Source: an uncultured Verrucomicrobiota bacterium (GTDB taxonomy: Bacteria; Verrucomicrobiota; Kiritimatiellia; CAIKKV01; CAITUY01). From it: DNA of 60,674 bases. Of the stretch, positions 15,644 through 27,568 are shown piece after piece (position 1 is the first letter of the stretch; each line of letters starts with the position of its first letter). The stretch covers positions 1-60,674 of the forward strand of contig CAZHRU010000005.1 in assembly GCA_964535015.1 (NCBI GenBank). The letters run 5' to 3'. The position numbers and the translations under genes are program-made. The notes beneath the pieces are model-generated. The model did not search any database. It was given only the letters and a program-made list of their open reading frames with translations, and was not told the origin of the DNA.

Positions 15644-16891
15644 ATGAACGAGGAATTAACACCCGCCACCCCCGCCCCACCGCAACAGTCCCGGCCATAT
15701 ACCGTCCTGGACCTGTTGGCTTCGGTCAAGTTTTCCGCCGCCGTCGTCCTCCTCTTGATCCTGGCCTGTATAGCAGGAACCGTGTTGCCACAGGATGGAC
15801 AGGTTGACCAGTATCTTGTCTCGCATCCGGACGCAGCCGGGCGTATGGCGATTCTGACGGCCGTTGGCCTCACCCACGTCTTCAGTGCCGGCTGGTTCAC
15901 CGCGCTGCTCTGCACCCTTTCCGCCTGCCTTGTCGTCTGCAGCCAACGCAGGTTTAAGGCGATGATCCGCTCCTCAGGCGCCCTGCGGGGTCGCGCCATC
16001 GCCTCCCTGATCCTCCATTCAAGCTTCCTCCTCATCCTCGCCGGCGCCCTGATCCGCTCGATCTGGGGAGTGAGCGGTCATATCCAGTTCAGGGAAGGCC
16101 AAACCCTCGCCGGGTTTGAGAGCAATAAGGGATCCCGCCCCCTTCCCTTTTCTATCCGCCTGGAGACGTTCGAAATCGAACGCTACCCGGTCGAATCCAC
16201 TACCGCCGCTCAACATGAGAACGAGTCCGTATCCCAATGGGGTCAACTGACGGTGCGATGGCCTGAGAAGGAAGTGATCACCAACGTCCCCGCCATTCCG
16301 GGAACGGAACAGATTCTTAAGCCGGAGGACGAACCCGCCTCATCCACAAACACCATGAAGGTCCGCGTTCTCCGTTACGTACCTGATTTCGTCATGGACA
16401 CCGCCGCCCGGGAAATCAGGACCCGCTCACTTGCCCCCAGAAATCCCGCCATTCAAGTTGTGGTCGAAACACCGGAAAAAACAACCACCAACTGGCTGTT
16501 TGCACGTCATCCGGAATTCGGCCTGCAGATGAATGGCGAGCACGCCGAATCGGCTCCACTTGCCAATTTGTATTACCGGCATTCCTCCAGACCGCAGGCA
16601 CCGCCCCCCATCAAAACCTTCCGCAGCACCGTGGCCATTCTGGACAAGGATCACCCGCAACCGTTGATCCGCACCTTGGCGGTCAATTCACCCCTGTCTC
16701 ATCGGGGCTACACCTTCTACCAGTCAGGGTATGATGAACGTGATCTCACCTGGACCTCCTTGCAGGTCGTGCGGGATCCGGGCGTCATGATTGTCTACGC
16801 CGGTTTTGTACTGACGCTGGTCGGTCTGGTCATGCTCTTTTGCCTCTACCCGCAGAAGCCCGTAAAGCCAAATACATCCCGCTATTCGTAG
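15644..16891 (+). CDS. resB: Second ResB/CcsB paralog (no adjacent ccsA)
   Basis: GTVLPQ, FSAGWF, LILHSSF, VNSPL..RGYTFYQSGY, VRDPG; shares an inserted domain with the first ResB. Start placed downstream of the terminator. Confidence 0.85.
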   Translation: MNEELTPATPAPPQQSRPYTVLDLLASVKFSAAVVLLLILACIAGTVLPQDGQVDQYLVSHPDAAGRMAILTAVGLTHVFSAGWFTALLCTLSACLVVCSQRRFKAMIRSSGALRGRAIASLILHSSFLLILAGALIRSIWGVSGHIQFREGQTLAGFESNKGSRPLPFSIRLETFEIERYPVESTTAAQHENESVSQWGQLTVRWPEKEVITNVPAIPGTEQILKPEDEPASSTNTMKVRVLRYVPDFVMDTAAREIRTRSLAPRNPAIQVVVETPEKTTTNWLFARHPEFGLQMNGEHAESAPLANLYYRHSSRPQAPPPIKTFRSTVAILDKDHPQPLIRTLAVNSPLSHRGYTFYQSGYDERDLTWTSLQVVRDPGVMIVYAGFVLTLVGLVMLFCLYPQKPVKPNTSRYS

Positions 16892-16894
16892 TTT

Positions 16895-16910
16895 TGTGAC
16901 ATTGCCCACA
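16895..16910. promoter_or_regulatory. CRP-like box TGTGA-CATTGC-CCACA
   Basis: 9/10 match to the CRP consensus, upstream of the OmcE-like gene. Confidence 0.55.
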
Positions 16911-17052
16911 CACTCATCCATCTGCGAATATATAACCATAGTTTCGGAATCACTCTTGGGATTCCGGAAAGCACGGGGAGAGATCCTCGCGCTGTTGACG
17001 GAAGGACGCTTTTTTGAGTAAGAACTCGTTTCAAAGGAAAGGTCAGTCGAAA

Positions 17053-17709
17053 ATGAATAAGAGGATGAAGTGGATGTCGGTGATGGTCGCGGGAACACTG
17101 GTGCTGTCAGGGGCGTCGATCGCGAAGGCGGGTATTGCCGGTTCAGCGCACGACTTCAGCACCGAACTATGGAGTGCCGGGACCTTGTGCGGAGTGTGCC
17201 ATGTCGCTCACAACGCCAAAACACCTCAATTGATTCCCTTGTGGAGCCATGAAACAAGTTCGGATGCCGGGTACACAATGTATACCAGCGCCACGTTCAA
17301 TGCGGCCGGAACCATTTCCGCGGCCCCTAGCGGTCCCTCGAAAGTCTGCCTGAGTTGCCATGACGGCACAGTTGCCGTTGACAATTTCGGCGGCACTACC
17401 AATGGAACAACCTACACAACGGCGGGATACGGCCTCCTCTCGAAGGACCTTAGCAATGATCACCCGATCTCCTTCACCTATGACTCCTCACTCGTGAGCG
17501 CGGACGGCTATCTGCATGAACCCACTACCGCAACTGTTCCCAACATGGGGACCAGGACCATTTCGCAGGTCATGCTGACCGACGGCAAAATGGAATGTTC
17601 GTCCTGCCATGACGTGCATCGGCAGAAGGGAAGTTCCGGATCCGACTCGACCCTGCTGATCGTCAATGGCGCAGGGAGCAAGTTGTGCTTGACCTGCCAC
17701 AACAAGTAG
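17053..17709 (+). CDS. omcE: OmcE-like secreted tetraheme cytochrome c (cytochrome nanowire family)
   Basis: About 218 aa with signal peptide; S.HD.S...CGVCH..HN...PLW...YTSAT...S..CLSCHDG...DLSNDHP..F...ECSSCHDVH...GSKLCLTCH.K follows the motif order I recall for Geobacter OmcE. Confidence 0.75.
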   Translation: MNKRMKWMSVMVAGTLVLSGASIAKAGIAGSAHDFSTELWSAGTLCGVCHVAHNAKTPQLIPLWSHETSSDAGYTMYTSATFNAAGTISAAPSGPSKVCLSCHDGTVAVDNFGGTTNGTTYTTAGYGLLSKDLSNDHPISFTYDSSLVSADGYLHEPTTATVPNMGTRTISQVMLTDGKMECSSCHDVHRQKGSSGSDSTLLIVNGAGSKLCLTCHNK

Positions 17710-17762
17710 GTAATCGTGCCCAGCGTAGGTTGCGCTGAGGTCCGCGACGATCGTTATCCATG

Positions 17763-17793
17763 GGCATCCGCCGGGAAACCGGCGGATGCCTTT
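17763..17793 (+). terminator. Strong 12-bp GAAA-loop hairpin after the OmcE-like gene (terminator or mRNA stabiliser)
   Basis: GGCATCCGCCGG-GAAA-CCGGCGGATGCC-TTT. Confidence 0.7.
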
Positions 17794-17816
17794 AGGTTAT
17801 TCTGGGACCGCCGGAA

Positions 17817-19010
17817 ATGGGGGCAAAACATACGATGCGACACATAATTCGACCTTTTTTGCTTGCGATCAGCGCCGTCTGCCTTCTGGCCGGGTGCGCC
17901 ACCCACCGCACCGGCGCAATTGCCCCGGTCTTCTACCCGCCACCCCCGGATCCGCCCCGCATTCAGTTCCTGAAGACCTTCTCCACCTCCCGGGATATCA
18001 ATCCGCAAAGCCGGTTCTCTCAATTTATCCTGGGCCCGCTTAGTCCGCGCCCCATCATCAAACCCTACGGGATTACCATCCACAGCAACTCCATTTACGT
18101 CTGCGATACCATGCTGGGCGGTCTCGCCGTTTTGGACCTCGAAAAACCCGCCATGGACTACTTTGTGCCTGCGGGACCGGGCCGCCTCCTCAAGCCCATC
18201 AACATTGCCATCGCTCCGGACGGAACCCGCTATGTCGCGGACTCCGAGCGAGGTCAGGTTCTCGTGTTCAACCCCACCGGAGACCTCCTCGGAACCATCG
18301 GCAAGAAAGCCGAACGCCGACAGAAGGCTTCCGAGCGAAGCGCCGAACCCGCACCTGGGAAGCCCGTCACAGACAAAAAGGAAAGCGCGGATTCGGAGAC
18401 CGACTCAGTGGACATGCGCCCCATCGATGTCCTCGTGAATTCCAATCGCCTCTTTGTCGCCGACCTGAAGGGACACTGCGTCCGCGTCTTCGACAAGCAA
18501 ACACTGGCGCCGGTCATGACCATTCCCGCGGGAGTGTCTACGAATGAAGAAGCCAAACTGCTATCCCCAACCAACCTGGCGCAAGATCAGCAGGGGCGCC
18601 TGTATGTGTGCGATACCGGCGCTTTCCGCGTCAAACTCTATGACAGCGACGGAACCTTCATCCGGTCGTTCGGTCGTTACGGTAACCGGTACGGGGAACT
18701 GGCTCGGCCCAAAGGAGTGGCTGTGGACCGTGAGGGTCGCGTCTATATCGCCGACGCCCAACTCGACGCCATTCAGGTCTTTGATCCCGCCGGTCAGTTG
18801 CTCATCTCTTTCGGCCAACCGGGCACCTCCCCAATCCCGCTTATCCTCCCGGCCAAGGTGGCCATTGACTATGATCACATCAAGTACTTCCAAAAGTATG
18901 TCGCGCCGGGATTCACACTAGACTATCTATTGCTGGTCACCAGCCAGTACGGCGAACGGAAGGTCAACGTGTATGGATTTGGACACTCCGTCAAACAAGA
19001 TTCGCCCTGA
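17817..19010 (+). CDS. NHL-repeat beta-propeller lipoprotein
   Basis: Lipobox LLAGC; repeats P.GIA.D..GR.YV.D. Confidence 0.85.
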   Translation: MGAKHTMRHIIRPFLLAISAVCLLAGCATHRTGAIAPVFYPPPPDPPRIQFLKTFSTSRDINPQSRFSQFILGPLSPRPIIKPYGITIHSNSIYVCDTMLGGLAVLDLEKPAMDYFVPAGPGRLLKPINIAIAPDGTRYVADSERGQVLVFNPTGDLLGTIGKKAERRQKASERSAEPAPGKPVTDKKESADSETDSVDMRPIDVLVNSNRLFVADLKGHCVRVFDKQTLAPVMTIPAGVSTNEEAKLLSPTNLAQDQQGRLYVCDTGAFRVKLYDSDGTFIRSFGRYGNRYGELARPKGVAVDREGRVYIADAQLDAIQVFDPAGQLLISFGQPGTSPIPLILPAKVAIDYDHIKYFQKYVAPGFTLDYLLLVTSQYGERKVNVYGFGHSVKQDSP

Positions 19011-20067
19011 CCCGGCCGCGGACTCCGCACCGTCAGCGCAACGGCATTATTGGCGGTTCGCCAAGACGCCATGGCGGGCATTAGCCGCCTGTGCCTTTGT
19101 TCTGCTGATCGCCGGGTGCGCCACTCGCACCCGTCACGAATGGCTGGTACTGTTCTTCGACGGCGTCCCCCCTGAACAAGGATCCAGCACCAACTCGGTA
19201 ATCTCCACCGCCACGGCGGGCACCAGCGCCGCCACAACCAATGCGCCCTCACGCCCCTTACCCCCTGCGCCCATTGTACACTCCCCCTATGCCGACCGCG
19301 ACTGCAACGCCTGCCACGAATCCGCCTTCTCGCAAAAAATGCGCGGAAAAACGAAAGACGTCTGCCTGGGTTGCCACACCGATCTCATGGATAAGGCCAA
19401 ATCCAAACATAGCCCGGCCGACGAAGGTGAATGCCTGACCTGCCACAACCCTCATGAGTCCCCGCAGAAATTCCTTCTGACCAAAAAACCAACCGCCTTG
19501 TGCATCAAGTGTCATGACGACCTGTCCAAGGTCAAGCACCCGCACGCCCCGGTCCAAGCAGGTGAATGCCTGGAATGCCATAAACCTCACGGCTCCGCCC
19601 AACCCCATCTGCTGTCCAGCAAACCTGAAACACTTTGCGGAACATGTCATACGGACATGGCCAAAGGGAAATATCCTCACGCTCCCGCTGAAGGCGGTGA
19701 GTGCAGCGCCTGCCATAAACCACACGGCTCCGATCTCCCCCATATGTTGGCAAAAAAGAGCGGAGACCTCTGCTTCTCCTGTCATGACAAATTCACCGCC
19801 AAGTTTATGCATGCCCCAGCCAAGGGCGGCGAGTGCCTCGAATGTCACCGCCCCCACGTCTCTTCAGAACCGGCGCTGGCCAGAAAATCCATCAAGACAC
19901 TGTGTTTCGATTGCCACGACAAGGACGAAGTGAAAGGTAAAACCGCCCACTCCACCATGGGGGATACCGCCTGCACCAAGTGCCACGACCCCCACGGCAC
20001 CGACCGCAAGTTCATGCTCAAGTCCACCAACAGCGTCCCGACCGCCGCCGCACCCGCAACCCCATGA
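18973..20067 (+). CDS. 11-heme lipoprotein cytochrome c (doubled-CXXCH repeat type)
   Basis: Lipobox LIAGC then FFDGVP; 11 CXXCH in repeats H.P...G.C..CH.PH.S....LL......LC..CH. Confidence 0.9.
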   Translation: MDLDTPSNKIRPDPAADSAPSAQRHYWRFAKTPWRALAACAFVLLIAGCATRTRHEWLVLFFDGVPPEQGSSTNSVISTATAGTSAATTNAPSRPLPPAPIVHSPYADRDCNACHESAFSQKMRGKTKDVCLGCHTDLMDKAKSKHSPADEGECLTCHNPHESPQKFLLTKKPTALCIKCHDDLSKVKHPHAPVQAGECLECHKPHGSAQPHLLSSKPETLCGTCHTDMAKGKYPHAPAEGGECSACHKPHGSDLPHMLAKKSGDLCFSCHDKFTAKFMHAPAKGGECLECHRPHVSSEPALARKSIKTLCFDCHDKDEVKGKTAHSTMGDTACTKCHDPHGTDRKFMLKSTNSVPTAAAPATP

Positions 20068-22049
20068 CGACGACACGGCACAACGTGCGACGGATCCTGC
20101 TGGCACCCCTCTGCGCCTTCCCTCTTGTGGTCTCCGCACAACCGTCCACCACGGCGCCCCAACTGCTTACGCTGTGGCTCGAAAGCCCATCCATCGTCTT
20201 CGATGCCGAGAAGAAGACTGAAACCCGGAAGAGTCCCGATCCCCTCAACTCCTACGAACAGGAAACCGTCCGCCTGAAACCCTCCTTGGACTTTACCCTC
20301 CGGGGTTCGGTCTACCACCCGAACTTCCTTGAATTCTACTTCCACGGCATGGAGGGCTTGGACTCCGAGGACACCACAACCACCCTCGCCGATGAATACA
20401 ATAGCAGTAGCCAAAGTTGGTTCCATAATTACAACGCCAACGCCTTGTTGTTCAGGGAGAAGCCGGTGACGTTCCAAGTCTTCGCCGAAAAGAACAGAAC
20501 TCGTCGCGAGTACGACTTCTTCTCGACTGTGGAAGTGGATTCACAGCGCTACGGAATGAGTAGCGGAATCAACAACACCAGAGTCCCGGCCTCGGTCAGC
20601 GTTTCTCATCTGGATGAAACCGTGGATGACCAGTTCCGACCTTCCACCCTCACCGAGGATGTGGCGGGCGTCACGCTCCGAAGCCAGCGCGGCATCGACA
20701 ATACCACTGACTTCAACTACCAGTACCGCAACTACGAACGGATGGAGAATGATGACTTCTCACAGTCCGGCACCGAAAACTCCGTTCAGATTGGCGATAC
20801 CGAACGTTTTGGCCTGCGCGATCAATTCAGGCTTGATTCCAACCTGTCCGCCTTCGACCTCGCCGACGATAACGGCTCCTATAACTCGTTGTCGCTCCGC
20901 GAGTCCCTGATCAACCAACATCGCCAGAATCTTGCGAGCATCTACCGGTACAACTTCAGACAGAACGAGCGCGACACCAGCCGGAACCATACGCATGAGG
21001 CCAGCGCGGGTCTCCGCCACAGACTTTACGAAAGTCTGGTTTCTTCCGGCGAACTCCACGGCGAACGCTCCGTTGACGACAGCGCCGAGGACCGCCTGCA
21101 AAAGGACCTCTATGGCGTCAACCTCGGCGAAGACTACACCAAACGCCTCGGCCTCTGGGGCCGCCTGAGTGCCGGCTATCATGTCCGGATCGATCAGGAA
21201 CGATGGAACGCCACCGGCAACGGAGGATTTTCCGTCATCGGCGAAATGCACACCCTTGCCGACGGCATCGTAACGTTACTGAACTACCCGGTGGCGAATA
21301 TCCAGGGCATCCGGGTCATGGACCTTACCGCCTCTCGCCTCTACCTGCCGGGCGTGGACTACACTGTCATCCCCCACGGCAACCGCGTGGAAATCAGGCG
21401 CGGCGTGACCGGCATCATTCCCAACGGAGGATCCGTTCTTGTGGACTACGATGCCACCAAGGCCAACTCCTCCAACTTCCGCTCCTTCGGCGACATGGCC
21501 TCGCTCCGGTTGGACCTTTTCGGGGATTTGATCGGCCTCTATACACGGCATGGACGGCAACGGTATTCCGGGGACGGCGCTCCTTTGTACCAGGAGTATA
21601 ACAGCACCCTGCTCGGCATGGATATTCACTGGGAGTTCTTCCGCGGCGGCGCCGAGCATGAGATTTATGATTCCGAACAGTCCCCCTATACCGCCACCCG
21701 CCTGTTCGAGACCTTCACTTTCAACCCCAACACCTATTCCATGCTCACCTTCGACTTCCGCCAATCCAACCTGCAATTCCCGGACCAGACGGAAGATCAG
21801 GACATCTACCAATTCATCGGCCAATACCAAGTCAGGGTAACCTCGACCTTGTCTCTCACCGCGGAGGGCGGCCAACAGTTCGAACGCGGATTCGGCGGCG
21901 ACCGTGATGTCACCACCTGGCGCGCCGGCGCCGACTACGCCATCGGACGCCTGACGTTCTCGGCCCGCTACGACCTCCAGGACGAATCCTATCGCGATGA
22001 GGAACGGGACCGCCGCATCATCCACTTCATAGCGAAGAGGGTCTTCTGA
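20064..22049 (+). CDS. Outer-membrane beta-barrel, putative porin of a porin-cytochrome conduit
   Basis: ATG overlaps the cytochrome stop (ATGA); signal peptide; amphipathic strands rich in Y/D/N/S; C-terminal Phe (KRVF). Confidence 0.75.
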   Translation: MTTTRHNVRRILLAPLCAFPLVVSAQPSTTAPQLLTLWLESPSIVFDAEKKTETRKSPDPLNSYEQETVRLKPSLDFTLRGSVYHPNFLEFYFHGMEGLDSEDTTTTLADEYNSSSQSWFHNYNANALLFREKPVTFQVFAEKNRTRREYDFFSTVEVDSQRYGMSSGINNTRVPASVSVSHLDETVDDQFRPSTLTEDVAGVTLRSQRGIDNTTDFNYQYRNYERMENDDFSQSGTENSVQIGDTERFGLRDQFRLDSNLSAFDLADDNGSYNSLSLRESLINQHRQNLASIYRYNFRQNERDTSRNHTHEASAGLRHRLYESLVSSGELHGERSVDDSAEDRLQKDLYGVNLGEDYTKRLGLWGRLSAGYHVRIDQERWNATGNGGFSVIGEMHTLADGIVTLLNYPVANIQGIRVMDLTASRLYLPGVDYTVIPHGNRVEIRRGVTGIIPNGGSVLVDYDATKANSSNFRSFGDMASLRLDLFGDLIGLYTRHGRQRYSGDGAPLYQEYNSTLLGMDIHWEFFRGGAEHEIYDSEQSPYTATRLFETFTFNPNTYSMLTFDFRQSNLQFPDQTEDQDIYQFIGQYQVRVTSTLSLTAEGGQQFERGFGGDRDVTTWRAGADYAIGRLTFSARYDLQDESYRDEERDRRIIHFIAKRVF

Positions 22050-23071
22050 TGCCCGTATTCACCAAGACGGCCAAGACCTCCCTCGTGGCAATTGGCACGA
22101 TCTCCTTCATGGCTGCCCTCGGCAGTGCCGATGCCGCCGCCCCATCCCCTGCCCCCTCATGGCCACCCCCGCCAGCCGGGGAACGCATCAGGTATGTGCA
22201 GAGCATGTCGACCCCCGCCGACATCGGCGCCCGGGTTTCCGTCTGGGGCCGACTCAAGGGCCTCATCACCGGCATACGATCGGACCGGGTCGCCATGAAC
22301 AAACCCTTTGGCGTTTCGACCGATCAGCAGGGCAACCTGTGCGTCACAGATACCGCCGCCGGAGCCATCCTGCTGTTCAATCGTGCCGACCACCGTTTCC
22401 AGCGGTTGGACTCGATCAGCGGCAGACCCCTCCCCTCCCCGGTCGCCGCCCTCGTCCACAACGGCCAACTGTTTGTCGCCGACTCCGCACTGGCAAAGGT
22501 CCTGGTCGCGGACCTCGACGGGCGTCTGCAATTCGAAATCCAGAACCTGATCCGCCCCACGGGACTAGCCCTGTGTGACGGTAAATTGTTCGTGGCGGAT
22601 GCCGGCGCGCACTGCATTGCCGTCTTCGACCTCAAGGGAACCCTCCTCCACCGGTTAGGCTCACGCGGCACCGGACCGGGCGAGTTCAATTCCCCAACCC
22701 ACATTTCCAGCGGCACTAACCATCGCATTCTTGTCACCGACTCCCTTAATGAACGTGTCCAGATTCTTGACATGGAAGGACGAAATCTTGGTATCATTGG
22801 ACGAGTCGGAAGCGGCGGGGGTCAATTCATCCGCCCAAAGGGGGTGGCAGTGGATAGTTTCGGTCACATCTACGTCGCCGATGCCCTGCATGACAACATT
22901 CAGGTGTTCGACGAGACCGGTCGCTTTCTCCTGAACTGGGGAGAATCAGGGTCTGGACCCGGCGAATTCTGGATGCCTTCAGGCATTGCCATCAGTTCGA
23001 AGAACGAAATCTTTGTGGCCGATTCGTACAATAGCCGCGTTCAGGTTTTCCAATACGTGGGGAAGGAATGA
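22049..23071 (+). CDS. NHL-repeat beta-propeller protein (secreted)
   Basis: Signal peptide; repeats GEFNSPTHI, GQFIRPKGVAVDS.G.IYV.D, GEFWMPSGIA. Confidence 0.9.
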   Translation: MPVFTKTAKTSLVAIGTISFMAALGSADAAAPSPAPSWPPPPAGERIRYVQSMSTPADIGARVSVWGRLKGLITGIRSDRVAMNKPFGVSTDQQGNLCVTDTAAGAILLFNRADHRFQRLDSISGRPLPSPVAALVHNGQLFVADSALAKVLVADLDGRLQFEIQNLIRPTGLALCDGKLFVADAGAHCIAVFDLKGTLLHRLGSRGTGPGEFNSPTHISSGTNHRILVTDSLNERVQILDMEGRNLGIIGRVGSGGGQFIRPKGVAVDSFGHIYVADALHDNIQVFDETGRFLLNWGESGSGPGEFWMPSGIAISSKNEIFVADSYNSRVQVFQYVGKE

Positions 23072-24861
23072 TAACGATCCGCATTTCAGCAAACCGATCC
23101 CAAGAGGCAGGGCGCACCGTCCCGGGGTGCCGCCTCGGGCTGGCCCTTTGCGTTTGGATCCTTCTGACAGTGACCGGCGCCGAGGCGAAAGGTGTCAGCG
23201 GCTCCAAACACGACCTCTCCGCCTCCGGTGGCAGTTCCATCAGGGCGTCCGCCGAAGGCGACGTGTGTATCTTCTGCCATGCCCCCCACAATGGATCCAG
23301 CGAAGCCCCACTCTGGAACCGCTACACACAAAAGACATTCTATACCCCCTATTCCAGTCCAACGCTCAAGGCAACCATCGGTCAGCCAACCGGCGCGTCC
23401 AAACTCTGCCTGAGTTGCCACGATGGAACCGTTGCCCTTGGCATGGTGCGTAGCCGCTCGAAACCAATCCCGCTTTCAGGCGGACACAGCAAAATGCCGG
23501 CAGGCCGCGCCAAACTGGGAACCGATCTCTCCGACGATCACCCCATCTCCTTCACGTATGACGCCGCCTTGCTCGCCAAAAACACGCAGTTAAAAAGCCC
23601 GGCGTCATTGAAAACCGCCGCGCGCCCCGACAAGTCCGGCCAGGTTCAGTGCACCTCCTGCCACGATCCACACAACAATGAATACGGCAACTTTCTGACC
23701 ATGAACAACGCTCAATCCGCCTTGTGCATATCCTGCCACGACATGACGTACTGGGCCACCTCCGACCATCGCACCTCTGCAAAACAGTGGAACGGGCAAG
23801 GCCAGAATCCCTGGCCGCATACCGAGGGCAAGACCGTTGCCGACAACGGGTGCGAGAACTGCCATTCCCCCCACCAAGCCGGAACCGCCGCCCACCTGAT
23901 GAACTTTGCCGGCGAGGAACAAAATTGCCTGCCCTGCCACAACGGGAATGTCGCCTCAAAGAACATCCAGGCGGACTTGGCCAAACGCAGTCGCCATGAT
24001 GTGGCCGCCACGACCGGGATTCACGATCCCACCAAGAGCCCCTCCGCCTCCGCACGCCATGTGGAGTGCGTGGATTGCCACAATCCGCACGCCGCTCGCG
24101 GCGGCGCCACCGCCCTCTCCAGCAAAGCATCCCCCCCCGGACTCGACAGCACCCTCCTCGGCGTGGCCGGCGTCAGCGCCGCCGGAAGCGCCCTGAAGGC
24201 CGCCAGTCACGAGTATGAGATCTGCTTCCGCTGCCACGAAAACCAGACGCCCGGCCAGACCGCCACCGTGTCGCGCAAGTCCAACCCCTCCAGCCTGCGG
24301 CTGAAGTTTTCCGCAGGCAACGCCTCTTATCACCCCGTCGTGGCGGCCGGACACAATCCCGATGTCCCAAGTCTGATTTCCTCGTACAACGCCTCCAGCA
24401 TCATCAAATGCACCGACTGCCATAATAGCGATCAGGGTCCCGCCGCGGGCGGCCAAGGCGCAAGAGGCCCGCATGGCTCAACGTATGCCCCACTTCTTGA
24501 ACGGAAACTGGTCACCACCGACTTCGGCTCGGAAAGTCCCGCGGCCTACGCTCTGTGCTACAAGTGCCATAACCGGCAAAGCATTCTGAACAACGAGAGT
24601 TTCCCCGAACACAGCCGCCATATCGTGGATGAGAAGACCGCCTGCACCACCTGCCATGACTCGCATGGCGTCAATGAATCCACCGCCCTCATCAACTTCA
24701 ACACGGCCTACGTGTCACCCGGCGCCAGCAGCATCTCATTCCAGCACACAGGCCGGTTCCAGGGAAGTTGTTCCCTCACCTGCCACGGCACCACCCATGA
24801 CAACCAGACCTATGGAACACCCGCCATGTTTTTGAAACCCGCAACAAAACGGCGACGATAG
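23068..24861 (+). CDS. 12-heme cytochrome c (11 CXXCH + C-terminal CX3CH) with an N-terminal OmcE-like module
   Basis: Motifs counted in the translation; the first four hemes align motif by motif with the 17053-17709 protein. Confidence 0.9.
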   Translation: MITIRISANRSQEAGRTVPGCRLGLALCVWILLTVTGAEAKGVSGSKHDLSASGGSSIRASAEGDVCIFCHAPHNGSSEAPLWNRYTQKTFYTPYSSPTLKATIGQPTGASKLCLSCHDGTVALGMVRSRSKPIPLSGGHSKMPAGRAKLGTDLSDDHPISFTYDAALLAKNTQLKSPASLKTAARPDKSGQVQCTSCHDPHNNEYGNFLTMNNAQSALCISCHDMTYWATSDHRTSAKQWNGQGQNPWPHTEGKTVADNGCENCHSPHQAGTAAHLMNFAGEEQNCLPCHNGNVASKNIQADLAKRSRHDVAATTGIHDPTKSPSASARHVECVDCHNPHAARGGATALSSKASPPGLDSTLLGVAGVSAAGSALKAASHEYEICFRCHENQTPGQTATVSRKSNPSSLRLKFSAGNASYHPVVAAGHNPDVPSLISSYNASSIIKCTDCHNSDQGPAAGGQGARGPHGSTYAPLLERKLVTTDFGSESPAAYALCYKCHNRQSILNNESFPEHSRHIVDEKTACTTCHDSHGVNESTALINFNTAYVSPGASSISFQHTGRFQGSCSLTCHGTTHDNQTYGTPAMFLKPATKRRR

Positions 24862-24874
24862 GTCCGAATACCCT

Positions 24875-27568
24875 ATGAGGTCCATGACCATGGATGCGAC
24901 ACCAACACCTGCAAACCATCAGAACGGGTTGCTCATCCGCGCGGTTTCGGGTCTGTACCTCGTGAGCCTGCTCTGGTGCATCCCTGCGGCATCCCTGGCA
25001 AGTGACCCGCCCCATACCAATGCGAACGCCTGCGCCACCTGTCACCTGACCCATAATGCGTTTGGCCCGCTCCTCCTGACCAACGGGGTTGCCAATCTGT
25101 GCTTGTCGTGCCACTCCGCGGGCGGCGAGGCATCCGCCAAGCCCTTTGCCTCCGCCAACCAGGCATGGCCCTGGCCGGGTCTACCCGCCGCTACAAACGC
25201 CTCCGGCACCTCCCACCGCTGGGATGCCGGCGCGGCAGGCCATGTCGTCTTCCAGGGCGGCGCCGTGACCTCCTCCACCGGCATCATCTTTCCCGGCGGC
25301 GTCTACACCGGCGCCTACCCGAAGACCTACACCGTGACGATCACCAATGCGGGCAACGCCGGGGTCGCCCGTTTCAACTGGACCGCCACCCTCCCCGGCG
25401 GCGGTGCCGGCACGAACCTGCTCGCCGCCACCAACACCCCCCTCGACCAGGGCATTCTCCTCACCTTCGCCAACGGAACCGGCGTATCCTTCCAAGTCAA
25501 TGACCGCTGGATCATCCCCGTCCGTCCCGATCTGCGCGCACCCACCAATACGTTCATGCTGACCCGCCTCGTCAATGGATCCGTCGTTTGCTCCACCTGC
25601 CACGACCAGCATAGCCAACTCAAGACGCCCTTCGATCCGGCCGCGCCGACGAACACCACCTCTGCCGGCCGTCATTTCATGCGCGTGGCTAACGATCAGA
25701 ACCAGATGTGCCTGGACTGCCACGCCACCCGCAATGTCACCAACGCGATTCAGGGATCTCACCCAGTGGGCATCAGCACCCTTTCCAACACCCTGTACAA
25801 ACTCCCCGCCTCCCTGCCTCTCTCGAAAACCATCAACCATGTCGGTTGCCTGACCTGCCACACTCCCCACTACGCCCCCGCCAACAACGGCATGCTCCTC
25901 CGCATGACCAATACCCTCGCCCTCTGCGTGGATTGCCACCAACTGGCCAACACCAATACCCCCGGTTGCCACTTCATCACGACCAATGCCGCCACCCTCT
26001 GGCCGGGCGGCCAATACGGGTCCCTCCTGACCAATCGAACCGATGCCGCCTTGCAGGGCTCCTGCCTGAACTGCCACAGGGTACACGGCTGGCCCGATGC
26101 CGCCAATCCCACCAATGACTACCCGCGTCTCCTCGCCGACCGCGAGGAAAACCTCTGCTTTACCTGCCACGACGGCAACGGCCCCGCCGCCAAGGATGTC
26201 TACGTCGCCTTCACCAACGTCTATCATCATACGGTCCTCGATGCCGAACAGCGCCCGGGCCGCACCGTGGAGTGCCTGGACTGCCATAACGTCCATCAGT
26301 CCATTTCCAACGGCCATGTCTACACCAATTCGGCAACCTCCACCCGCAACCTGGTATCCAACCCGCTCAAGGGAGTCCCCGGTGTCGCCATCACCTACTC
26401 ATCCTTGACCAATTTCTCCGGAGTAACCACAAACCTGTACACCGCCATTCCCCAGTCCACCAATGAGTACCAGATCTGCATGAAGTGCCATTCGGGATAT
26501 GGTTACCCCGTCAATACCGCCGGAACCGCCTCTTTCACCACCAACACCTCCGCGGTAAGCGGCTCCGGCACCCAGTGGTCCAGCAACCTGGTGGGACAGA
26601 CACTCTTTCGCGCCAATGACCCGACACTTTACGTCATCACCGACGTAACCAGTGCAACCAGTCTATCCATCACCCCTCCCTATTCGGGGGCGACTGCCGC
26701 CGGCCAGTCCTTCACCATCATGGGGTTGCCGCCGGGCCTCACCCCCGTCTACACCAACGGAACGGCCGCCTTCACCAACAACAGCACCACCGTCAAGGGA
26801 ACCAGTACCACGTGGGGATCCGGAATGATCGGCCTGTGGATCGCACCCACCTCCACGCCTGCCGTCCTCTACAGGATCACGGCAGTCCTCAACACAACAA
26901 CCCTCACCATCGTCCCGGCCTATGCCGGCGCAAACAGTACCGGTCAGCGCTACCACATAACCGGAGGCACCGACCTCGCCCAGGAATTCAGCCCGATGAA
27001 CATGTCGGGGCACCCCATCTACACGGGCCTGAGCAACTACGTCAACACCCTCGCCCCGCGCGGACTCCTCGCCACCGCCCTCCGCCCGCCATGGAACGCC
27101 AACGTCGGCAACCAAACCATGATGTGCTCGGATTGCCACGACGACACGACCACCAATTACGTCCCCGGCGCTGCTCAGGGTCCCCACGGTTCCGCCTACC
27201 AATACATCCTGCGGGGCCCCAACGGCAACAACTGGCCGAATGTCACCTCCTTCGCCTCCAGTTGGTGCGCCAATTGCCACATCGACAACGTCGGCAAAGA
27301 AATGCACACCCGCGGTGAACACACTGCCGCGAACTGCTACGGATGCCACATCGTCATACCCCACGGCGGCAAGGTCTCCCGCCTCATTGGCGACCGCGAC
27401 ACCATGCCGGCCCGCTACGCCTGGAACAACACACTCACCAACATGCAGGTTTCCGCCTTCAAGAAGACCACCGCCAACAGTTACGCCGAGGGATCCAGCG
27501 GGAACTGCGCGGCCGCCTGCAGTAGCACCGACAAGCATCCCTCAATTTCAGGAGCCGAAAACTGGTGA
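24875..27568 (+). CDS. 13-heme secreted cytochrome c with inserted beta-rich domains
   Basis: 13 CXXCH, a terminal CAAACSSTDKH, two repeated ~68-aa inserts and one N-terminal beta insert; T/N-rich. Confidence 0.9.
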   Translation: MRSMTMDATPTPANHQNGLLIRAVSGLYLVSLLWCIPAASLASDPPHTNANACATCHLTHNAFGPLLLTNGVANLCLSCHSAGGEASAKPFASANQAWPWPGLPAATNASGTSHRWDAGAAGHVVFQGGAVTSSTGIIFPGGVYTGAYPKTYTVTITNAGNAGVARFNWTATLPGGGAGTNLLAATNTPLDQGILLTFANGTGVSFQVNDRWIIPVRPDLRAPTNTFMLTRLVNGSVVCSTCHDQHSQLKTPFDPAAPTNTTSAGRHFMRVANDQNQMCLDCHATRNVTNAIQGSHPVGISTLSNTLYKLPASLPLSKTINHVGCLTCHTPHYAPANNGMLLRMTNTLALCVDCHQLANTNTPGCHFITTNAATLWPGGQYGSLLTNRTDAALQGSCLNCHRVHGWPDAANPTNDYPRLLADREENLCFTCHDGNGPAAKDVYVAFTNVYHHTVLDAEQRPGRTVECLDCHNVHQSISNGHVYTNSATSTRNLVSNPLKGVPGVAITYSSLTNFSGVTTNLYTAIPQSTNEYQICMKCHSGYGYPVNTAGTASFTTNTSAVSGSGTQWSSNLVGQTLFRANDPTLYVITDVTSATSLSITPPYSGATAAGQSFTIMGLPPGLTPVYTNGTAAFTNNSTTVKGTSTTWGSGMIGLWIAPTSTPAVLYRITAVLNTTTLTIVPAYAGANSTGQRYHITGGTDLAQEFSPMNMSGHPIYTGLSNYVNTLAPRGLLATALRPPWNANVGNQTMMCSDCHDDTTTNYVPGAAQGPHGSAYQYILRGPNGNNWPNVTSFASSWCANCHIDNVGKEMHTRGEHTAANCYGCHIVIPHGGKVSRLIGDRDTMPARYAWNNTLTNMQVSAFKKTTANSYAEGSSGNCAAACSSTDKHPSISGAENW

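Follow-up and report, generated by a model that had tools for sequence, protein, structure and literature searches.

In the filaments of the cytochromes OmcE and OmcS, each subunit contains one haem whose ligand histidine is supplied by the adjacent subunit (eLife PMC9473688; Biosci Rep PMC12203936). The minimal omcE cluster is composed of OmcE, two multihaem cytochromes, two β-propeller lipoproteins and a large β-barrel (Petersen et al. 2026, mBio, PMC13712944). According to these authors, the anchor of such a filament should resemble OmcE and contain nine histidines, and no OmcE-like candidate for an anchor or a tip is encoded in omcE operons. The OmcE-like protein Dsoud_2415, which has four haems and a single additional histidine, has been proposed as a filament terminator or anchor, a role that Petersen et al. 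doubted because the protein is encoded outside the omcE cluster (PMC13712944). The osc cluster, which is the companion of omcS, encodes the OmcS-like paralogs OmcT and OscC together with porin-like and accessory genes (Shen et al. 2025, as summarised in PMC13194489).

Here, we are describing a 12-haem cytochrome, P0001, encoded in a cluster of the omcE type on a 60,674-nucleotide stretch of DNA (the window). All six gene types of the minimal omcE cluster are present in the window and adjacent to each other, with the barrel being putative and the second propeller devoid of a lipobox (Table 1); β-propeller lipoproteins and a large barrel are, hence, common to OmcE clusters and to this one. The barrel is assigned on the basis of its size, its cluster-conserved position and a weak Porin_4 match, and the 11-haem lipoprotein scores 128 bits against the MtrA/DmsE model TIGR03508, which is under the cut-off of that model. 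The cluster lies entirely on the + strand and continues, after the 13-haem cytochrome, with ResB/CcsA-type maturation genes. The 13-haem cytochrome likewise opens with a short N-terminal histidine arm (SDPPH). The strong hairpin following the gene of the stand-alone OmcE-like protein, P0002, would agree with an arrangement in which subunits are numerous and accessory proteins few; a scan of positions 16800–25000 for sigma-70 promoters found none. The ATG of the P0001 gene overlaps the stop codon of the upstream NHL gene (ATGA).

Table 1. Features of the omcE-type cluster and of the cytochrome P0001, in coordinates of the window.
Feature	Position	Strand	Basis
P0002, stand-alone OmcE-like tetrahaem protein, 218 aa, presumed filament subunit	17053–17709	+	7TFS, E 3e-19; 9YUQ, E 6e-19
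13-bp GC hairpin with U-rich tail, likely partial terminator	17760–17795	+	fold z −3.9
NHL β-propeller lipoprotein 1 (LLAGC lipobox)	17817–19010	+	Pfam NHL, E 4e-20
11-haem lipoprotein (LIAGC lipobox), MtrA/DmsE-like paired CXXCH	18973–20067	+	Paired_CXXCH, E 8e-68
Putative outer-membrane β-barrel, 689 aa, ends in KRVF	19980–22049	+	weak Porin_4 match; barrel inferred
NHL β-propeller 2, without lipobox, translationally coupled to P0001	22049–23071	+	Pfam NHL, E 2e-32
P0001, secreted 12-haem c-type cytochrome, 597 aa	23068–24861	+	ORF list, translation
Signal peptide of P0001, residues 1–40 (ending LLTVTGAEA, followed by KGVSGSKH)	23068–23187	+	cleavage site inferred by eye from the sequence
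M1, complete OmcE-family tetrahaem module, residues 41–228, haems 1–4	23188–23751	+	
KHDLS motif with H48, the presumed donor histidine	23206–23220	+	
C8, 8-haem domain (seven CXXCH and one CX3CH), with 11 conserved non-motif histidines	23752–24861	+	
H234, a possible additional ("ninth") histidine to close M1	23767–23769	+	role inferred
C568-SLT-C572-H573, atypical CX3CH binding the last haem	24769–24786	+	
13-haem cytochrome, distant P0001 paralog with inserted β domains	24875–27568	+	BLAST, E 7e-17; hhalign, 99.5%

P0001 is composed of one OmcE module (M1) and a different 8-haem domain (C8), the latter being related to the neighbouring 13-haem protein. It carries no lipobox, and C28 is kept in just 7.5% of the relatives. 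While stand-alone OmcE ends just past haem 4, in P0001 a further 369 residues with eight haems follow M1. The original prediction had counted these as eight more haems, which is right as to the number of sites; seven of them, however, are CXXCH and one is the CX3CH of C568–H573. This atypical site is kept in 92–97% of 80 relatives and is also present in the homologs from Desulfuromonadia. The AlphaFold2 model of P0001, computed without haems, is of moderate confidence (pLDDT 73, pTM 0.69).

That a full OmcE-like module heads the 12-haem cytochrome had been read from shared motifs, and alignment bears this out. In a BLASTP comparison, residues 33–225 of P0001 (nt 23164–23742) align with residues 16–217 of the 218-aa P0002 at 36% identity (E 4e-29), thereby covering the whole mature P0002 and confirming the predicted span of 23190–23740. 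The motif pairs KHDLS/AHDFS, CIFCHAPHN/CGVCHVAHN, PLW, SKLCLSCHDGTVA/SKVCLSCHDGTVA, DLSDDHPISFTYD/DLSNDHPISFTYD and CTSCHDPH/CSSCHDVH were all found in the translations of P0001 and P0002, in register. In searches of all PDB chains, M1 matches full-length Geobacter sulfurreducens OmcE (GSU0618; 7TFS, residues 6–231; E 2e-30) and D. soudanensis OmcE (9YUQ; E 6e-25), compared with the weaker values of P0002 for the same two chains (Table 1); thus, M1 is nearer to Geobacter OmcE than P0002 is (E 2e-30 versus 3e-19 for 7TFS). The four CXXCH sites and the four distal histidines of M1 (H48, H74, H158 and H202) stand in the order of OmcE, and the two proteins also have the N-terminal histidine arm and the motifs PLWN, SxxCLSCHDG and DLSxDHP in common. 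In a Foldseek search of the PDB with the P0001 model, 7TFS was the sole significant match (E 1.9e-7, 203 aligned columns, TM 0.61 normalised to the target). Against the family of stand-alone OmcE proteins, M1 reaches 100% (E 3e-70) in hhalign. In the BLAST control, M1 matched OmcE along the full length with E 1e-33 to 1e-36, while the same queries matched unrelated multihaem proteins of the window with merely E 1e-4 to 1e-5; the relationship is therefore no artefact of the CXXCH motifs. Just two OmcE-like modules, M1 and P0002, are contained in the 3.0-Mb, 87% complete genome bin.

The spacing of histidines and CXXCH sites had suggested that P0001 comprises three tandem OmcE modules, an architecture that was rejected, since an unrelated multihaem family, used as a control, reached equally high scores. 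Residues 229–395 (M2) are collinear with the OmcE family (hhalign, 97.9%, E 4e-13); the family of the unrelated 11-haem lipoprotein, however, matched all P0001 modules equally well or better (98–98.5%, E 1e-13 to 1e-15), including M2 itself (98.5%, E 3e-15). BLAST fails to separate the M2–OmcE match (E 2e-5) from unrelated multihaem proteins (E 1e-4), a profile search of the PDB for tandem modules returned motif-level matches and nothing more, and the C-terminal part (M2 and M3), when modelled on its own, gave a poor structure (pLDDT 63) without any fold match. The description of P0001 as one module plus an 8-haem domain was therefore kept.

The conservation of histidines was scored across 54–80 relatives from more than ten phyla. 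In addition to the twelve histidines of the haem-binding motifs, 15 further ones are invariant or near-invariant in the P0001 family, namely H48, H74, H158, H202, H234, H269, H310, H319, H331, H341, H422, H469, H515, H518 and H533. Since twelve distal ligands are needed, at least three of the 15 are spare, so that H48 could go to a partner with no haem of P0001 being left unligated; this surplus permits a donation of H48, but falls short of proving it. M1 has exactly the eight histidines of a filament subunit, all of which are haem-ligating and invariant. H48 is found in 79 of 80 relatives and would lie on a free arm about eight residues past the inferred mature N-terminus, which compares with mature positions 8, 7 and 7 of the N-terminal histidine in OmcE, D. 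soudanensis OmcE and P0002, respectively. The donated histidine of OmcS is His16, near the N-terminus. This analogy, together with the unchanging position of H48 on a free arm, suggests that H48 may serve as an inter-subunit ligand. H234, which is invariant in the fused forms, is located ten residues past the CXXCH of haem 4, and H577, beside the last haem, is kept in 82% of the relatives.

M1 and the stand-alone subunits constitute two old branches of the OmcE family. In a maximum-likelihood tree of 132–138 tetrahaem modules, M1-type and stand-alone OmcE-type sequences fall on opposite sides of a single branch (SH-aLRT 99, and 96 after adding the Desulfuromonadia). The M1 side holds 75 modules, among them the heads of 42 fused proteins, 16 separate proteins from Nitrospirota and six from Desulfuromonadia, each preceding an 8-haem gene, and ten heads of other large cytochromes, with such M1-headed cytochromes occurring in Rhodocyclales. 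All 63 stand-alone OmcE-type proteins, Geobacter OmcE and P0002 included, are on the other side, and the M1 branches are shorter than theirs. On the evidence of these sequences, M1 is an ancient, slowly evolving paralog branch that is sister to the stand-alone OmcE-type subunits. Given its position opposite P0002, it is no recent copy of the local subunit.

The P0001 family comprises at least 7,967 database clusters; the best 120 of these relatives are 52–73% identical over the full length. The family has no name of its own and, where members are named, they are called "predicted CXXCH cytochrome family protein". The public locus closest to the window is from a Kiritimatiellia MAG (89% identity), and relatives are, by record title, present in Verrucomicrobiota, Lentisphaerota, Planctomycetota, Beta- and Gammaproteobacteria, Nitrospinota and Nitrospirota, as well as in Acidobacteriota, Myxococcota, Binatia, Gemmatimonadota and Desulfobulbaceae. 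Across phyla, a recurring gene order is seen—OmcE-like, NHL, (11-haem), barrel, NHL, fused gene—and in 30 of 42 loci the fused gene is immediately preceded by an NHL gene. A stand-alone OmcE-like gene is found in each of the 24 fused-type loci for which at least 6 kb of upstream flank is available.

One and the same 8-haem domain invariably comes after M1, whether within a single protein or, as in Nitrospirota and Desulfuromonadia, as the product of the following gene. In about 20 loci from Nitrospirota/Thermodesulfovibrionales, the order is NHL, 4-haem M1-type protein and 8-haem protein, each of the two cytochromes having its own signal peptide. Among the 13 Nitrospirota loci with M1 and C8 and with enough flank, ten have no further OmcE-like gene. 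The Desulfuromonadia, the group where OmcE filaments have been observed, were covered by whole-genome searches of six genomes (G. hydrogenophilus, G. argillaceus, Pelotalea chapellei, Geobacter sp. OR-1, a Desulfuromonadales MAG and Trichloromonas). No P0001-type gene was found within 10 kb of omcE in these genomes; in all six, a split trio of NHL, M1-like and C8-like genes is located elsewhere. Its C8 part is 42–43% identical to residues 286–583 of P0001, its M1-like proteins have an extra histidine (HHPVSF), and the trio adjoins type II secretion-like genes; in G. hydrogenophilus, its neighbours are T2SS-F, T2SS-E, PilM and secretin genes as well as lon. We take the Geobacter trio to be GSU1785–1788, merely mentioned as cytochromes in the literature.

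All of the separate 8-haem proteins start with a signal peptide, followed by 3–13 residues and then H-x-D, which is the same design as that of the OmcE N-terminus. This arm suggests that M1 and C8 are joined by a link of the type used between subunits. In a MAFFT alignment, the N-terminal histidine of the separate C8 proteins is set on H251 of P0001 (59% conserved) and not on H234, which had been considered as its counterpart. The sister branch of M1, its constant pairing with C8, the stand-alone OmcE-like gene in all assessable fused-type loci and the retention of the eight haem-ligating histidines are new observations.

In the reading that we prefer, and to which we assign a probability of roughly 40%, P0001 is a pseudo-subunit adaptor that caps or anchors an OmcE-like polymer. 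M1 would take the place of a subunit in a polymer of P0002-type subunits, and H48, on the free N-terminal arm, would reach into the open haem of the last P0002-type subunit, forming the same His-to-haem cross-link as that joining the subunits of an OmcE filament. On the far side of M1, no further subunit would be accommodated in this proposal, because that side is filled covalently by C8; in the split forms, C8 would be held there through its subunit-like arm. P0001 would, in this way, close the polymer at one particular end, and C8 would add eight haems to its haem chain in the direction of the 11-haem lipoprotein and the β-barrel. Its role would be that of a base or anchor, or possibly that of a tip. 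The proposal builds on the homology, architecture, conservation, synteny and co-occurrence described above, while the identity of the donated histidine, the docking, the polarity and the cellular location are deduced.

An adaptor or primer presenting an OmcE-type interface had been postulated in the original prediction, and that idea is upheld in part. In its favour, P0001 contains a complete OmcE-family unit inside an omcE-type cluster, the eight haem-ligating histidines and the N-terminal histidine arm are kept, as docking would need, and a stand-alone OmcE-like gene accompanies the fused form wherever this could be assessed. Against it, the motifs on which the idea had been built belong to the haem core and are, hence, uninformative on any interface, M1 is an old separate paralog rather than a copy of the local subunit, and M1 and the 8-haem protein are unlinked to omcE in Desulfuromonadia and mostly without a second OmcE-like gene in Nitrospirota.

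Several described systems provide a background for a pseudo-subunit of this kind. OmcE is a stand-alone protein of about 220 aa (200–300 aa in the family), while M1 continues into eight more haems and belongs to a separate branch. By haem and histidine count, M1 can be likened to Dsoud_2415, since together with H234 it would have nine histidines for four haems and, thus, the same arithmetic; unlike Dsoud_2415, M1 of the window is encoded inside the cluster and is fused to eight more haems. OmcT and OscC are, like M1, paralogs of a filament subunit encoded inside a nanowire helper cluster; in contrast to M1, they belong to the OmcS fold family and are not reported to be fused to another multihaem domain. 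As an analogy only, the terminator, anchor and tip subunits of chaperone-usher pili can be considered, where a subunit-like protein using one side of the interface fixes the end of a fibre, and where subunits donate an N-terminal extension to their neighbour much as the arm of P0001 might do. The proteins are, however, unrelated, no usher or chaperone homologs are present with P0001, and the link would be a His-to-haem iron bond instead of a donated β-strand.

The strongest alternative, which we regard as only slightly less probable than the pseudo-subunit, is that NHL protein, M1 and C8 constitute a self-contained 12-haem electron-transfer rod in a pathway of the porin-cytochrome type, leading from the periplasm to the outer membrane without any contact to the OmcE-like protein; the likeness to OmcE would then reflect shared descent of a tetrahaem building block. 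The trio being unlinked to omcE in the six Desulfuromonadia genomes and the ten Nitrospirota loci devoid of a second OmcE-like gene speak for such a conduit, as do the separate tree branch of M1 with its short branch lengths and the M1-type modules heading other large cytochromes in Rhodocyclales. Furthermore, no protein of the cluster is conserved more strongly than P0001 (about 1 bit per residue, compared with 0.07 for the barrel, between Kiritimatiellia and Betaproteobacteria), which matches a part embedded in the envelope and the slow evolution reported for the periplasmic components of porin-cytochrome complexes (PMC12977616). As in the conduits MtrCAB and Geobacter OmaB-OmbB-OmcB, a barrel of about 690 aa is flanked by multihaem cytochromes in the window, and the 12-haem chain of P0001 would be long enough to span the outer membrane. 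Unlike conduit cytochromes, however, P0001 scores far under the cut-off of the MtrA/DmsE model (TIGR03508, 48.5 bits versus 192.2), is no lipoprotein, in contrast to OmcB, and is larger for its haem number than MtrA (about 46 versus about 33 residues per haem). An independent conduit would also leave unexplained why the N-terminal histidine arm and all subunit-type ligands are invariant, why all 24 assessable fused-type loci also hold a stand-alone OmcE-like gene, and why the separate C8 proteins have subunit-like N-terminal histidine arms.

It is improbable, in our view, that P0001 itself polymerises head to tail, with H48 being donated to the last, CX3CH-bound haem of a neighbouring P0001, yielding a wire with 12 haems per subunit or a co-polymer with the OmcE-like protein. 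The free N-terminal histidine arm and the atypical, yet conserved terminal haem site would suit such an arrangement, and there are predictions of haem-rich, nanowire-like cytochromes for Desulfuromonadia (bioRxiv 10.1101/2024.01.05.574438). However, given the surplus of at least three conserved histidines, every haem, the last included, can be ligated from within, H577 is well conserved directly beside that haem, and the gene is located downstream of the likely partial terminator, among accessory genes and not in a high-expression position. A chance resemblance of CXXCH-rich proteins, as multihaem proteins mutually inflate their profile scores (98%, E 1e-13 in the controls), or an assembly chimera is refuted by the distance of the M1–OmcE match from the multihaem background, by 7TFS as the only fold match, and by the recurrence of the fused architecture in 42 loci and more than 7,900 database proteins.

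Returning to the pseudo-subunit reading, its extension to the whole family can be put forward only tentatively: in most phyla, OmcE-type nanowires may have a specialised pseudo-subunit of the M1 branch as their base or closure, joined via the His-to-haem link of the subunits, with C8 wiring the filament to the outer-membrane conduit. Such a protein would be the anchor, terminator or nucleator postulated by Petersen et al. (2026), and fused and split forms would represent two states of one joint.

With regard to how cytochrome nanowires start, stop, stay on the cell and receive electrons, P0001, with more than 7,900 database relatives in over ten phyla, is a concrete and widespread candidate for a nanowire anchor or cap. 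If the pseudo-subunit reading is true, H48 would be seen donated into the last subunit, with the cap at the haem-4 end; fused and split forms of M1 and C8 occur in nature and allow a comparison. If, on the other hand, the independent conduit is true, the combination of NHL, 4-haem and 8-haem proteins would be a conserved unit in extracellular electron transfer, Geobacter included.

Unrelated multihaem cytochromes score against each other at up to 98% probability and E 1e-13 (profile-profile and BLAST scores), and claims of homology among such proteins need family-level controls. The secreted 12-haem cytochrome P0001 consists of an OmcE-family tetrahaem head (M1) fused to an eight-haem domain (C8); in the Nitrospirota loci L032-L052, L110 and L122, its counterpart is a pair of secreted proteins, of which the 4-haem part often terminates in ...GH or ...EW past the haem-4 motif, and a further OmcE-like gene is absent from most of these loci. 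A split form is also found in Geobacter and relatives (L155-L160, six Desulfuromonadia genomes), where genes for an NHL protein, an M1-like 4-haem protein and a C8-like 8-haem protein form a trio apart from omcE; these M1-like proteins have an extra histidine (HHPVSF). In G. hydrogenophilus, the trio adjoins genes for T2SS-F, T2SS-E, PilM and a secretin, together with lon. This trio may correspond to GSU1785-1788, a region that neighbours the genes of the atypical OxpG type II secretion system.

Other architectures occur in the Gammaproteobacteria loci L131, L135, L142, L146 and L154, where the fused protein has a greater length, 695-713 aa, and the stand-alone partner is an OmcE-like protein of 291-294 aa with five haems, of the type that Petersen et al. 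2026 (PMC13712944) noted as "5-haem OmcE-like". Proteins with 11 haems and 800-900 aa, often in tandem, are encoded in Aromatoleum, Rhodocyclales and Gallionellaceae (L129, L134, L136, L140, L141, L149); they combine an M1-type head module with a remainder resembling the 13-haem cytochrome of the window. On contigs L028 and L029, labelled "Thermoplasmata archaeon", NHL genes and a fused gene for a 12-haem protein stand in a cluster of the bacterial type, reflecting either mis-binning or horizontal transfer.

Relative to P0001, the 13-haem cytochrome encoded downstream of it contains inserted beta domains. Its N-terminus comprises a signal peptide followed by SDPPH, six residues and CXXCHxxH, and with this SDPPH start, a short N-terminal His arm is present in three proteins of the window's omcE-type cluster. 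At its opposite end, P0001 has a short basic tail; such tails (e.g., TRRR, LRRF, PRR) occur in many of its homologs in alignment A2.

Features and their coordinates (window positions unless a locus is named)
Feature	Position	Strand	Remarks
GC-rich hairpin	17760-17795		13 bp, GAAA loop, U-rich tail; directly 3' of OmcE-like gene; fold z -3.9
P0001 C-terminal tail	24835-24858		KPATKRRR
13-haem cytochrome	24875-27568	+	distant paralog of P0001, E 7e-17 (BLAST)
NHL, M1-like, C8-like trio (example)	L155:8982-11975		

The hairpin behind the OmcE-like gene is likely a partial terminator, through which the subunit would be expressed above the downstream genes.
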